Assembly: GCF_013167455.1 (NCBI RefSeq) | Contig: NZ_CP038332.1 | DNA from: Escherichia coli O157:H7 | GTDB taxonomy: Bacteria; Pseudomonadota; Gammaproteobacteria; Enterobacterales; Enterobacteriaceae | Reading direction: 5' to 3' (one strand) | DNA length: 64,000 nucleotides | Shown here: positions 19,001 to 25,000 of the stretch, one piece after another | Position numbering within the stretch: the first letter of the stretch is position 1 | Layout of the letters: each line of letters opens with the position of its first letter | Position numbers: made by a program

Positions 19001-22000
19001 TCTGTTCCGGCCCTTTGGGCCGGGGCGGGGCCGTTTTTCAGTTATGAGGGAGGGGCTTTGTGGTTTCAGTTCTGCGCGGGACCGGGGTTTTTCTGGAGGT
19101 TGTTTTTGTGTGTTGTAACTAAAGTGGCTCCGGTTGGGGCCCGCCGCTTGCGGTGGGAGGTGCATATCTGTCTGTCCACAGGACAGGCAGTGAATAAGTC
19201 TTTTTTTTAAATGAATGTAATTAAGTAGTTTAAAGGAGATATAAACGGGTGTTTAAAAGATACATTGCACCCTGTAAGCCTGGCGGCTGGTGCTTTATGA
19301 CATGAACGGTTGTAATCTTACAGAGAAATCCCTTGCAGTTTAATGTGGATAAACAAAATTGCCCGTCTGTGAGACGTGTTTTGTATCAAAACAGGGGGGA
19401 CCGGATGCACCAGAAGGTAGATGATGAGGTTGTTTTTGGGATGTGGTGCTGATTTTTTGTGCACCGGCGGGCTTCAGGCGTGCGAATGCCTCCGGCGCGT
19501 GCCGGATTATTCTGAGGAGGTCACTTTCAGGGGGAAGCTGTGGCCAGCCGGCTGTAATTGCGGTTACGTGACAGAATCATGCGCTCCTTCACACGACGCT
19601 CCACTTCGCGTTTTACCGCCTCACGATTAGCAGTGAAGCGCCCTTCCGAGATTTCACGCGTCAGCTGCCGTTTCACCAGGGTGACGATATCCTGACGTTC
19701 CCTGCCCGCATCACGACGCGCACGGGCACGCTTTATTCCCCGTGACTTAAGCTCTGTCTGGTAACTGCGGAAACGCTCACGCACAAAACGCCAGGCTTTC
19801 GCTATCAGTTCATCCATACCCAGGGTATCCAGCCCCTGCTTTTTGCGCAGCCTGTTTTCCCATTCAACACGGCTGCGGCGCGCAGCTGCCACTGCATCCT
19901 CAGACACATCAAGGGCAGCAAACAGAGCCGGTGTGAACGTGATGTCGGTCGGAATGTAGCACCCGATAAGCGGGTCATATTCCGTCTGGTAGGTAATCAG
20001 TCCCAGCTCTGACAGGAACGTCAGGGCCCGGGTGGCACGGGTGATGGAGAGTTTTCCGGCAGCAGACTCCGTCGCCAGTCCGCACTCAATGGCCAGTGTG
20101 GTGATGGAGCACTGGACACGGTTGGCCAGCGGGTCATAGTGAAAACACAGCCCCTGCAGCAGCGCATCAATAGCCCGGCGACGCAGTACCGGTGGCATGC
20201 GCCGACGCAGTCCCTTCGAACGGGCATGTGCCACATGAATGGCGAAATCAAAACGGGAGGTGAAGCCCACCGCCTTTTCCATCAGTTTTTCGCAGAACTT
20301 CAGCGTTCCGGCACCTTCACGGGGTGTGAACACCGGATTCGGGTTCTTTACCTGGCGGTAATACGTTTGTTGAAGATCAGTCACACCATCCTGCACTTAC
20401 AATGCGCAGAAGGAGCGAGCACAGAAAGAAGTCTTGAACTTTTCCGAGCATATAACTATACTCCCCGCATAGCTGAATTGTTGGCTATACGGTTTAAGTG
20501 GGCCCCGGTAATCTTCTCAGTCGCCAAACTTTCTGAAGATTATCGGGGTTTTTGCTTTTCTGGCTCCTGTAAATCCACATCAGAACCAGTTCCCTGCCAC
20601 CTTACGGCGTGGCCAGCCACAAAATTCCTTAAACGATCAGTAATCTAGCACTAATCTTCTGAACACTCAAGAATGTAAGCCCATCATCACACACATCGTT
20701 TTTGCGCTTCACTTTTTATCAGTGCGGTCAGAACTTCAGCCTGAGTCAGGCCATCTTCATGACACATTTGCATGAGCATGGCCTTATACTTTGGTTCAAG
20801 AAATACTTTTACTTCCTTGAACGAAGCTCTTTTACGGGCCACTGATAATCTTTGTTTCTCTGCATCAGAAAGCGGATTCCCCTTTCTGTATGCTCGTTTT
20901 GCGCCAGATGAGGAAGTCACTGCATTTTCTGTCTGCGACATCTCGCCTCCTCAATACTTAAACAGGGATCGTTTCGCAGAGGATACTACAGTTTTTTGAA
21001 ATCAGCGACTTGAGAATTGTGACGAAGATCTGTGTTGGCGCACAAATCAACGGGGATTACTGTCGTTTAATGTGATTTAAACTGTGAAATAGTATGGTTT
21101 TCAGTTATGGAAACGCCGGGAGCGGGGAAAACTTGCTTTTTCCCGTTTCCGGGGTTGGACAACTGAGCAACGCGAAGGCGTCAGCTACGATGTTCCGGTG
21201 ACTGCTGAGCAGCCCCTGTTGTATTCAGCCATTCTCCGGTCATCTGCAGCAGTTTTCTGGCATCGTGGCTTCTGAGCAACGGAATACCAGCCTGCCTCAG
21301 AACCTCTTCCAGAAGAATATCCCGGCGTCTGCGTTCAGGTCGTAAATGGCTGGCATCATATTCACCGCCGGACAGTATTCGCTCTGCATCACCGGTCCGT
21401 ATACCTGCCGCATGCAATTGCATCAGCAAAGGAGAATGCTGATTTACACTTCTGAGGATAATCCGGATAAGTAACGCTGCAATAATCAGAACAATGAGAA
21501 TAAAAATAATCAGCTTCATTGTTTATCTGCTCCTGGTAATTAATTATGCTGAACTATTACCTTACATATTTCCATATTTCTTTTGGTATCCTGTCATATA
21601 ACTTTCCGGTGATTAATTCTGCTAACCGGTGGTCTGCTGCTGAATTAAATGATTCACGTTCACTGGTCGATAAACTGTCTCTGTTTTTATGAATAATTTT
21701 TTCCAGCGTATTGACTGATGAACATCGCCGTAATTGATACAGCCATTCCTGTTTTGTTTTTTCCATTTTTATTCCCGCTGAGAACAGATGAATGATAAGA
21801 TTGCCATCGCTTTATTTACGGTGTCTCCATATCCAGGGGGGAACCGGATCAGCATCTGACCAGAGCCCACGTTTTTGTTGTCTGGCTTCGTTCTGAAGGA
21901 CAGGCAGCACGGGATCTGTGTTGTACTGCTCATATACCCAGGCGGCCCCGGCCCGGACCATAAACTGATTAACATTCATTCCGTCTGGTGCATAAACCTG

Positions 22001-25000
22001 CCCGAGCATACGACCATAACGATCTCGCTGAAAATATGTGACGGTAACCGTTTTTCCTGCAACCAGTGATTTCATCATGTCTGTCGACCACCGGCCATAA
22101 TCCTGTTTCTTTTCCGGCGCATCAATATTTACCAGCCTGATCCGCACCGCCTTCCGTGAGTCCATGACCTCGATGGTATCACCGTCCAGTACACGAACAA
22201 CCCGTCCATGAATATCTGCACACAATACCGGCCATGAAAAGATAAATAATACCAGTGGAATATATTTCCTCATGTTATTCTCCGTATCAGATAAATAGCA
22301 CCTGTATTTCAGGCATCCTGAATATTGCAGCACACACTTAATAACACCTTATTTTGTGAAATTAATCACAAAATATAAAATCACGACTTAATACGGAAAA
22401 AACTCTGTGCTACTCAGAACTGGCCGGTCATACTGCCCGACCGGATATTAAAAAAAGCAAATCTCATGCATTATTCAGCCTTCTGAATCCCTGGAGTAAT
22501 GAAGGCTGCTTTTTTCGTTACCCCCTTCCTCGGCAGCGCCGGTGGCAGTGTTCAGCCCTTTTTCGGGCAAACTGCTGCCAGTCAGTCCGGGGTGCAACAC
22601 CGGCAGCCCGTCGCCATGCTTCTGCCGCTTCCATCCAGCGTCCACTGACTTCCAGAATAACGGCCCGGCTTCCGGCACGCTGGTAACGCCAGACCTGACC
22701 GTTCCGTGAACTGTTTCTGAATCCATTCATCTTTATCACTCCTCTTTAACCCGTCAGTATTATGGTGTTAAATAATCTACTGAATTGGCTTCCTTTCGGG
22801 TACGGAAGTTATTTCCTTTTAAGCCTTATTTCCCTGCCTCCTCTCTCTGAGGGAGGCTTTTTTTATTTCTCATCAAGCACGGCCTGAAGTTCTGCCTTTA
22901 TCCGGTTCTGGCGGCGGATTTTATCCAGACGCGCTGCCGCATACGCTTCCTCCTCCTGAGAAATATGCTCCGTCACATACCCTTCCGTGTCATACCGGCA
23001 GGCACCGGCTTTCATGGCACACAGATAGCTTTCTGAACGGGTGATGGCCTTCAGCGCCCTGCGCAGCTTTTTATGCGAGAGCGGGATATTCCGCTGCGCC
23101 ACGTCTTCCAGTAACACGTCCCGGATACCGCAGGCCAGAAGCCGGGGCGTGTCACCGTCAAATAATCCCGGCCACCAGGGTTTCAGGGTGTTCACGGCCT
23201 CATCCTGCGTGGGCAGGTTCAGATAAATGGACAGCGCCTGTCTGGCCTGCGCTTTTTTTGCCGCCAGCTCCGCTTCCCGGGCTGCTTTCTCGGCCAGCTT
23301 CTGCTTTTTCACCTTCCATTTTGGTGGCGTGGTGACATTGATGATGGTTTTCCGGCTGCGGACAGGCGTCTCTCCTTCCGTTTTCCGCTTCAGTGTCAGT
23401 ACCGGTCGTTTTTGCTCTGCCATGCTTACTCTGACCTTCGTGAAAATATGCCCTGCAGGCCGTTGAAACGGCTCATCGTAACAGGAAGTTAATTTCAACG
23501 ACCTTTAACGTATAAATACTGACAATTAAAGATATTGTTTAAACCATTGTGTCTGCACAGCTACTACACGTTCAAAAAACGCGCCCTCATAAATATCATA
23601 ATGGCATGCATCAGCTTCCTCGTATAATTCCTTAGTACCAGAAGCAACAGCATCATATAATGCTCTTCCCTGTTCCGGTGGATTAACGCTATCCTGGCCG
23701 GCAATAACAACCAAAACTGGGCACTGGACGCTGGCTGCACTCTCTGCCGGTTTATATTGCAACGTTTCCATGACCGTAAGGAAAGGTATTTTTATATCCA
23801 TTTCGGGATGCCGGGCTTTGATTTTCTCGAAGAATACCTTCGATTCATCATCACTTAGTACCCGTGTAACCCCCACAAACATCTCTTTCCCGGTGTTTTT
23901 CTTCTTCTCTGCCATTTTATTCAGCGTGGATAGAAAAGACGCTCTCTCCGATTCATTCATCTCTCCGGTAACCAGAACATCACCGTCAGCAAAAGCCAGC
24001 TGGCTGACAATACATTTTACGCGTTGGTCCTGCGCAGCTGCACTGAAGACATGCCCCCCTCCCAGCGATGTTCCCCATAACCCAATACGCTGATTATCAA
24101 TACATTCCTGCTTTTCTGCCCAATTGATAACTGAAATAATATCTTCGGTCTGCATTGCAGGAACCAGACGCCCTCGTTCTCCATCACTCTCACCGAATCC
24201 TCGATAATCAAAAGTAATCGTTGCGAATCCTGCTTCTGTGAAGGCATTCGCAAAGCAAGGGAGCAGAACATTCCTGATACCGCAAAACCCATGGCATAAG
24301 ATAATCAAAGGATGTTTTATATTTCCTTCAGGAACACGAAATGTCAGGGCAATACCTTCAGAGAGTTTGTGATCCGTAATTTTCATAAATATCCTGTGTT
24401 ATGTTGTTTATTAATAAGCAGAATCAGCGTCAGTATCATACCAGTCACAACGCCAGAATGCCCAGCACAGCCAGATGACAGCCATAGAACGTCGGGAAAA
24501 AATCTCCGGGCCAGAAACGGGGTAATGATTTCCCTGCACAGGACACCAGACCAACGGTCAGCACCGTCATCACAAGACCAGCTACAGCCGCCGCATCACT
24601 GGAGGCAAGGTTAAGTGCCGGAATCACGGCCAGCAGGCATGCAACCAGCACCAGACGTTCCGTTCTGTCTTCCGCCCGGTACAGCCGGTGGCTGACTGCC
24701 AGCATCAGCAGCCCGGCAATGCCGTAACTGGTGCCGGACAAAGGCCCCCACAGTGCCATCAGGAGAATGGCCGCTGCTGTACGCCACCCACTGCGCGTTT
24801 CACACCACGTCAGCACCTGTGCCGCCACTGCAAAGGCAAACAGGATATTCCCCTCATACCACGGAAAGCCTGCCAGATAATACGCGAACTGGGCAATAAT
24901 TCCCCATCCCCACAGCCGGTTAATGGCCGACTGCCTGATATGCGCATGGCGGGACAGATTCAGCCCCCACACCAGAGCAAACAACGGAAAGGCTCCACGC

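Follow-up and report, generated by a model that had tools for sequence, protein, structure and literature searches.

Plasmids that carry genes for nucleases have been described before. ParB of the IncP plasmid RP4/RK2 is a Ca2+-dependent nuclease homologous to staphylococcal nuclease (SNase), and its gene, parB, lies within the parCBA stabilization operon; a role for it in plasmid maintenance or in the handling of multimers has reportedly been proposed. Nuc of the IncN plasmid pKM101 is a member of the phospholipase-D family. The nuc gene of IncI1 plasmids (R64, pESBL) lies between sogL and traK, is annotated as an EDTA-resistant nuclease, and is dispensable for transfer (PMC4288162). The present analysis concerns another plasmid-borne nuclease gene, of the SNase family, together with the three small genes that accompany it in a stretch of 64,000 nucleotides from Escherichia coli O157:H7 (RefSeq assembly GCF_013167455.1, contig NZ_CP038332.1). 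This whole stretch is called the window below.

The genes that accompany this nuclease belong to families that have, of course, been described as well. The ANR family, which includes Aar, is marked by a signature of seven residues, A10, E14, A22, W26, A29, W43 and R47 (PMC4983702), and a further report has ANR proteins binding H-NS (PMC5570504). An Hha-like gene of R100-1, rmoA, affects conjugation, a result of Nieto et al. (1998) as cited in PMC4864382. The DUF2726 domain has been placed in the PD-(D/E)XK superfamily, with no known function (Steczkiewicz et al., PMC3424549). The genes have even been annotated together; those of plasmid pEntH10407 were given in 2009 in the same order, under the labels “conserved hypothetical,” “thermonuclease family,” “YmoA,” and “helicase,” the last of these being wrong (PMC2762410).

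Here, the four genes form an ordinary accessory block of R100-type F-like plasmids, set between finO, which closes the transfer region, and repA2/copB, the copy-control gene of the RepFIIA replicon. The block is already known; all of its genes are named in RefSeq, and plasmid annotations have included them from 2009 at the latest. The reading that we prefer, and in which we have considerable confidence, is that this is a standard block in which the minus strand carries four genes and the plus strand one RNA, with the roles that are proposed further below. The features of the region, by position in the window and in the order in which the minus strand would be transcribed, are these:

traX, minus strand: first in transcription order, then the alpha/beta hydrolase gene (RefSeq and profile matches)
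23526-24386, minus strand: alpha/beta hydrolase gene, 286 aa, between traX and finO
22863-23423, minus strand: finO
22836-22865, plus strand: intrinsic terminator from a terminator scan, with the hairpin GCCTCCTCTCTCTGAGGGAGGC (22836-22857) and a T7 run
22518-22730, minus strand: ANR-family gene, 70 aa
22437-22621, plus strand: AS-pc02 antisense RNA, Rfam RF02876 (“antisense to pHK01_099”), from cmscan
22350-22375, unstranded: perfect 10-nt inverted repeat, TATTTTGTGA-N6-TCACAAAATA, with the CRP-consensus core TGTGA-N6-TCACA
21812-22273, minus strand: SNase-family nuclease gene, 153 aa (PF00565)
21557-21766, minus strand: Hha-family gene, 69 aa (PF05321)
21181-21519, minus strand: yihA remnant, 112 aa
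20687-20941, minus strand: repA2/copB, then repA1

A first-pass annotation, made from the sequence alone, had placed four small open reading frames (ORFs) between finO and the RepFIIA replicon; all four are present on the minus strand at those coordinates, with finO and repA2/copB flanking them. This is not a chance pattern of ORFs, because the window matches pO157 of the E. coli O157:H7 strain Sakai at 100% identity, because at least 5000 plasmid records match the block, and because each of the four genes has a ratio of nonsynonymous to synonymous substitution rates (dN/dS) well below 1. Over 1.9 kb around the block, dozens of other pO157 records are 100% identical as well. Further, the order finO, ANR gene, nuclease gene, hha, yihA, repA2 is identical in R100, and also in thousands of F-like plasmids. 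Thus, the conservation of the small flanking ORFs across F-like plasmids, which that annotation had put forward as a check, is found. Its view that the flanking ORFs all lack a known function does not hold, since Pfam and NCBIfam matches assign the 69-aa ORF to the Hha family and the 73-aa ORF to the ANR family.

The identity of the nuclease, which had been called a thermonuclease-family enzyme with a signal peptide, is well supported. The protein matches the Pfam SNase profile PF00565 along its entire length (positions 1-107 of 107; 107.1 bits, cut-off 21; E 7.8e-31), and SNase chains in the PDB are recovered by phmmer at E 2e-14. Loss of catalytic residues relative to staphylococcal nuclease had been set beforehand as the observation that would refute the claim, and no such loss is seen in the alignment. 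Residues D19, D21, R35, D40, E43, Y85, R87 and Y115 of SNase are all retained in the plasmid nuclease, where the equivalents of D21, D40, R35, E43 and R87 are D32, D51, R46, E54 and R88. Two positions are substituted, T41 by Ala and Y113 by Trp. At the first of these, the Ca2+ ligand is a backbone carbonyl. Judged by these alignments, the catalytic and Ca2+-binding residues of the nuclease are intact.

The features of a signal peptide are likewise apparent in the predicted protein, whose amino terminus consists of MRK, a hydrophobic core of 14 residues, and LCA|D, with Ala at position -1. A hydrophobic leader ending in Ala is kept in all of the plasmid nuclease homologues compared, at 53-84% identity. 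A lipoprotein signal was considered as an alternative and ruled out; the protein lacks a lipobox, and homologues do not have the Cys. The predicted mature protein has a mass of 15.5 kDa, an isoelectric point of 9.6-9.8, and no Cys. From these features we infer that the nuclease is exported and that it cleaves DNA and RNA in a Ca2+-dependent manner. Substitution patterns place it under purifying selection, with a dN/dS of 0.12-0.20 against diverged copies. The gene is also common, occurring in 2666 of 5426 complete E. coli genomes, and nearly all of the places where it is found (2978 of 3015) are plasmids. Homologues with 53-59% identity are carried by conjugative plasmids of two other groups, IncI1, where the gene is near trbA, and IncX3, where it is within the type IV secretion cluster.

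The sequence upstream of the nuclease gene suggests how its expression might be controlled. The arms of the inverted repeat at 22350-22375 are 100% complementary, and its center precedes the nuclease ATG by about 90 nt. The motif TGTGA-N6-TCACA occurs a single time in the 64 kb, against 0.09 occurrences expected by chance (0.03 for the longer pattern), and the palindrome is unchanged in R100-type loci. This suggests the hypothesis that the nuclease is under cAMP-CRP control through this candidate site. The palindrome also overlaps a promoter-like site on the plus strand (22354-22381), at the -35 hexamer. A separate hairpin lies on the minus strand at 22299-22315, about 20 nt before the ribosome-binding site of the nuclease; in a divergent lineage it has undergone compensating changes, from GCCTG...CAGGT to GCATG...CATGC.

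The second gene of interest is the one next to finO. The first-pass annotation had described it as a weak ORF of 73 aa, at 22518-22739. In RefSeq, where it is named an ANR family regulator, the start codon is the ATG at 22730 and the product has 70 aa. A GAGGAG Shine-Dalgarno sequence stands 8 nt before that ATG. The 70-aa form is most likely the correct product. It matches the NCBIfam model ANR_neg_reg (NF033650) with 37.1-37.3 bits (cut-off 32), and each of the 17 variants sampled also matches that model. When it is aligned with Aar, six of the seven signature residues are kept and invariant (as A23, E27, A35, W39, A42 and R58), and C62 stands at the position of C51. Copies from other F-like lineages, at only 43-45% identity, retain the signature residues, and the dN/dS of the gene is 0.13-0.43. 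By these sequence measures, the supposedly weak ORF is a real ANR-family gene under purifying selection. An overlapping ORF of 83 aa (22475-22726) was tried as a real gene and rejected; it has no family match, and the signature and the selection signal both sit in the ANR frame. With the family alignment as input, AlphaFold (AF2) gives a model with helices at 4-28, 32-45 and 49-68 and a mean predicted local-distance difference test score of 83. Foldseek searches with that model returned only generic three-helix or TPR-like matches, the best at E 0.3.

Opposite this gene lies an antisense RNA. The AS-pc02 match covers the full model (positions 1-185) at 205.2 bits, where the gathering score is 40 (E 3e-54), and it spans the last 34 ANR codons and part of the spacer between the ANR and nuclease genes. 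The R100-type locus L005 has the same element at 229.5 bits, and divergent lineages have partial matches at 47-53 bits. In those lineages, the element resembling AS-pc02 precedes the nuclease gene and has no overlap with the ANR-like gene. This weakens the simple view that the RNA is antisense to ANR.

The plus-strand terminator, which starts 215 nt beyond the end of the AS-pc02 model, is convergent with finO and antisense to the ANR gene, and its T-run overlaps the finO stop codon. Its hairpin and T-run are retained in six lineages, in which the stem sequences differ and compensate. Together, these features of the sequence look like the marks of a conserved transcript from the plus strand, one that is convergent with finO and runs across the ANR gene.

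The third gene presents few difficulties. The 69-aa protein matches the Pfam HHA profile PF05321 with 84.3 bits (cut-off 25; E 7.2e-24) and the NCBIfam Hha model NF008191 with 97.8 bits (cut-off 90). An ungapped alignment with E. coli Hha over 66 residues shows 55% identity, and the two proteins share an identical SAADHRLAEL segment, which we take to hold the Asp that contacts H-NS. The dN/dS of the gene is 0.14. By sequence, then, the 69-aa ORF is a member of the Hha/YmoA family of H-NS co-regulators, and its protein would be expected to bind H-NS. RefSeq places an Hha at the equivalent position in R100 (WP_001298565.1), differing from it at 3 residues. By synteny, and by the citation in PMC4864382, this R100 gene is presumably rmoA.

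The fourth ORF is another matter. It had been described as a single-pass transmembrane protein of 112 aa, of unknown function, and the hydrophobic helix is indeed present (mean Kyte-Doolittle score of 3.45 over residues 3-21), near the amino terminus and the only one in the product. The ORF is not a distinct small membrane protein, as alignment with the 196-aa YihA of R100-type plasmids rules this out. That protein has a DUF2726 domain (PF10881), which scores 76.5 bits in intact relatives. The ends of the pO157 gene are identical to those of full-length yihA, and exactly 252 bp between them (codons 55-138) are gone, in frame, with a junction between 21358 and 21359 that has no notable microhomology. 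What is retained is the membrane anchor and the carboxy-terminal tail. The product accordingly reaches only 18.4 bits with PF10881, below the cut-off of 24.7, over profile positions 79-110 only, and the acidic residues that are invariant in the family (E66, D78, D92, D120, E136 and D138 of full-length YihA) are all within the deleted segment. A probe that crosses the junction is unbroken, which is the deleted form, in plasmids from cattle and human stool whose size is about 90-95 kb; on many other plasmids it splits in two, consistent with an intact yihA. Thus, as read from these comparisons, the 112-aa ORF is an in-frame deletion remnant of YihA, belonging to the pO157 lineage, that has lost the catalytic core.

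The block is constant at one end only. In every lineage compared, an ANR-like gene adjoins finO; the genes that come after it vary, as follows:

pO157 and R100: SNase gene, hha and yihA after the ANR gene
L006 and L008: SNase gene, unrelated small ORFs and hok/sok after the ANR gene
Klebsiella plasmid: PIN-domain gene after the ANR-like gene
Escherichia fergusonii plasmid: NYN-domain gene and yihA after the ANR-like gene
L014: hok only after the ANR-like gene

This mosaic pattern argues for treating the four as separable cargo, and not as one obligatory machine. Sites of such swaps, between the finO-ANR pair and repA2, are seen at L012:1509-2108, L013:1420-2046 and L006:2103-2252 (PIN, NYN and hok/sok). 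Within the R100-type arrangement itself, the genes do not share one history. Between pO157 and the R100 type, the number of synonymous substitutions per site (dS) is 0.56 for the ANR gene and 0.05 for the nuclease gene, a difference of about 10-fold, and megablast matches break inside or beside the ANR gene. The contrast in dS points to recombination breakpoints in and around the ANR gene and, together with the breaks in the megablast matches, suggests that there are distinct ANR alleles exchanged by recombination.

The flanks hold two further observations. The alpha/beta hydrolase at 23526-24386 (minus strand) matches the NCBIfam model “UilS family quorum-quenching N-acyl-homoserine lactonase” with 511 bits (cut-off 400); the RefSeq name of the product is “alpha/beta hydrolase” only, and the gene is missing from some F-like plasmids (e.g., L008 and L012). 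On the plus strand at 20469-20557 lies CopA (99 bits), the antisense RNA of the RepFIIA replicon, which is expected beside repA2 and repA1.

How might such a block work? In the account that we prefer, the three-helix ANR protein would act by analogy with Aar, through protein-protein contact with H-NS, with an activator, or with both, rather than by binding DNA, and AS-pc02 would be a convergent antisense RNA that overlaps its gene. The nuclease would pass to the periplasm by way of a cleavable Sec signal, and there would cut DNA and RNA in a non-specific, Ca2+-dependent manner; its gene might be switched on when carbon is scarce, through the candidate CRP palindrome. The role weakly favored for it is the scavenging of nucleic acids, because the palindrome suggests induction at carbon limitation. 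The Hha-family protein would bind the amino-terminal domain of H-NS and so tune the silencing of plasmid genes, those for transfer among them. YihA would be a membrane-anchored, Vsr-like PD-(D/E)XK protein, of which the pO157 lineage could make only an anchored stub. The last three genes may be transcribed together. The gaps between them are short (45 bp between the nuclease gene and hha, 37 bp between hha and yihA), and the terminator scan found no terminator-like site between them; because of these two features, a single transcription unit fits.

Several observations weigh against this account. With respect to the nuclease, the lineage whose copy is 81-84% identical has TGTTG-N6-TCACA in place of the palindrome core, and thus keeps one half-site; a consensus scan for a minus-strand sigma-70 promoter of the nuclease gene or the ANR gene found no convincing -10/-35 pair; and the literature searched yielded no data on activity, localization or expression of the nuclease. 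Further, the nuclease at L006:3018-3479 has DGNT for DGDT, which replaces the Ca2+ ligand D21 with Asn. This may be an inactive variant, and the dN/dS of the L006-L008 pair is raised to 0.68, at very low divergence. With respect to the ANR protein, the margin over the family cut-off is thin, and the seventh signature residue, W43, is replaced by an invariant Phe54. Identity to Aar is about 20%, and the comparison of profiles is weak (hhalign E 0.07). A direct comparison with Aar was considered too weak to serve as the sole basis of the assignment, and the family hidden Markov model and the signature were used instead. Nor was a partner of the AraC/XylS type found in the 64-kb window in a tblastn search with AggR as the single query (best E 0.42). 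Last, the mosaic content of the block speaks against the idea that the four genes must function together.

The function of the nuclease can be construed in other ways. The first-pass annotation had suggested, plausibly, that a periplasmic or secreted nuclease could act on extracellular or incoming DNA. In a fuller form of that idea, the exported enzyme would be a barrier, one that destroys incoming or naked DNA (transforming DNA, rival plasmids, phage) in the periplasm and thereby protects the resident plasmid. The predicted signal peptide and the apparently intact active site would place a non-specific nuclease in just the compartment that incoming DNA crosses, SNase domains occur in candidate defense systems (PADLOC matches the protein to C3a212, “SNc+LTD,” at E 3.5e-15), and other nuclease folds (PIN, NYN, DUF2726) fill the neighboring slot in other lineages. 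The PADLOC match is, however, to the SNase domain alone, with no partner domain, and none of the five further proteins scanned gave a PADLOC match. Conjugative and phage DNA is generally known to be channeled to the cytoplasm rather than freed in the periplasm, and E. coli already owns a periplasmic nuclease, EndA. The gene is found, moreover, in nearly half of complete E. coli genomes, where it coexists with further plasmids, and no phenotype was found in the literature searched. These considerations make a barrier function improbable. We regard as equally doubtful the proposal that the nuclease is a factor in colonization or virulence, degrading the extracellular DNA of biofilms or of neutrophil traps in the manner of the thermonucleases of Staphylococcus aureus and of non-typeable Haemophilus. 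The enzyme is of the same family and is predicted to be exported, virulence plasmids such as pO157 carry it, as do Shigella plasmids, and a report on a Haemophilus SNase homologue has that enzyme acting on biofilm extracellular DNA (PMC5944969). Yet the gene is not linked to virulence, because it is equally common on resistance plasmids and cryptic plasmids (F-like, IncI1, IncX3) of environmental and commensal hosts, and no secretion system adjoins it that would allow passage beyond the outer membrane. Far less probable than either is an intracellular role, in which the nuclease would act on its own plasmid to serve maintenance or the handling of multimers, as has reportedly been proposed for ParB of RP4. 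This would suit an SNase homologue encoded on the plasmid backbone beside a replicon, with relatives inside or beside the transfer clusters of IncX3 and IncI1 plasmids. Against it stand a leader that is conserved in all homologues and that points to export, the absence of adjacent partners resembling a resolvase, parA or parC, and the fact that pO157, from which most tra genes have gone and which is typed as non-mobilizable, retains the nuclease.

A different alternative joins the parts instead of reassigning one of them. Here, the four genes and the antisense RNA would be a single control module, in which ANR and Hha set H-NS silencing, AS-pc02 throttles ANR, and the nucleases are the outputs. 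Two families that interact with H-NS lie within 1 kb of each other, beside finO, which is itself a regulator of transfer; the ANR-like gene adjoins finO always while the content of the slot changes; compensatory changes preserve the plus-strand terminator; and the H-NS binding of ANR proteins has been reported (PMC5570504). The mosaic gene content, however, is that of separable parts, the AS-pc02-like element of divergent lineages has no overlap with ANR, no experiment that links the genes was found, and the ANR literature examined does not mention members from F plasmids. Such a module is unlikely. So, in our estimate, is the more specific conjecture that the ANR gene, the Hha gene (presumably rmoA) and the antisense RNA are an undescribed node through which F-like plasmids tune the H-NS silencing of their own transfer and cargo genes, with the adjacent slot serving as an exchangeable nuclease bay (SNase, PIN, NYN, DUF2726) whose SNase version is under cAMP-CRP control.

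Were that conjectured node real, the ANR family would extend from anti-activators of virulence to the regulation of conjugative plasmids, and the tuning of H-NS silencing of transfer genes by ANR and Hha would bear on what resistance and virulence plasmids cost and on how their spread is controlled. The finding as it stands matters little, of course, as the sequence is pO157 and its genes are already annotated. Three points have modest value. One is the ANR gene next to finO on F-like plasmids, since no mention of an F-plasmid branch or of a finO-adjacent member was found in the ANR literature examined. Another is the loss of the yihA core in the pO157 lineage. The third is that about half of complete E. 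coli genomes have this plasmid nuclease, and no report of its activity or role was found; more broadly, the literature searched gave no functional work on the nuclease, yihA or ANR gene of F plasmids.

The comparison with described systems can now be made gene by gene. Staphylococcal nuclease A has the same PF00565 domain as the plasmid nuclease, at 31% identity, with the same Ca2+ ligands, the same Arg/Glu/Arg catalytic triad, and an export signal such as is predicted for the plasmid nuclease. It differs in that its residues 44-49 have no counterpart in the plasmid nuclease, which also has the two substitutions noted above, and in where the enzyme goes; staphylococcal nuclease A is released to the medium, whereas the destination in the Gram-negative host of the plasmid is probably the periplasm. 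ParB of RP4/RK2 resembles it as an SNase-family nuclease on the backbone of a conjugative plasmid, although the nuclease here has no par partners adjacent, its neighbors being regulators instead. With the IncI1 Nuc it shares the condition of being a plasmid-borne nuclease not required in conjugation. The IncI1 nuc is nevertheless a separate gene; the SNase homologue of the IncI1 plasmid examined is near trbA, and this different location rules out that it and the “EDTA-resistant nuclease” are the same.

For the other parts of the block, the likenesses are closer. The 69-aa protein has no notable difference from RmoA of R100 or from chromosomal Hha, and the antisense RNA is a full-length match to AS-pc02 of plasmid pHK01, with no difference at the level of sequence. 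The ANR protein is like Aar and its family (PMC4983702) in being smaller than 10 kDa, in having three predicted helices and the signature residues, and in passing the NCBIfam cut-off; its gene, by contrast, adjoins finO on the backbone of a transfer plasmid, and not a virulence activator of the AraC type. Full-length YihA falls in the Vsr/DUF559/DUF2726 branch, since it matches PF10881 and, as a model, superposes on 3hrl, AbaSI, I-Bth0305I and Vsr. It departs from that branch in having an amino-terminal membrane anchor, and the pO157 copy departs further, having kept that anchor without the catalytic core.

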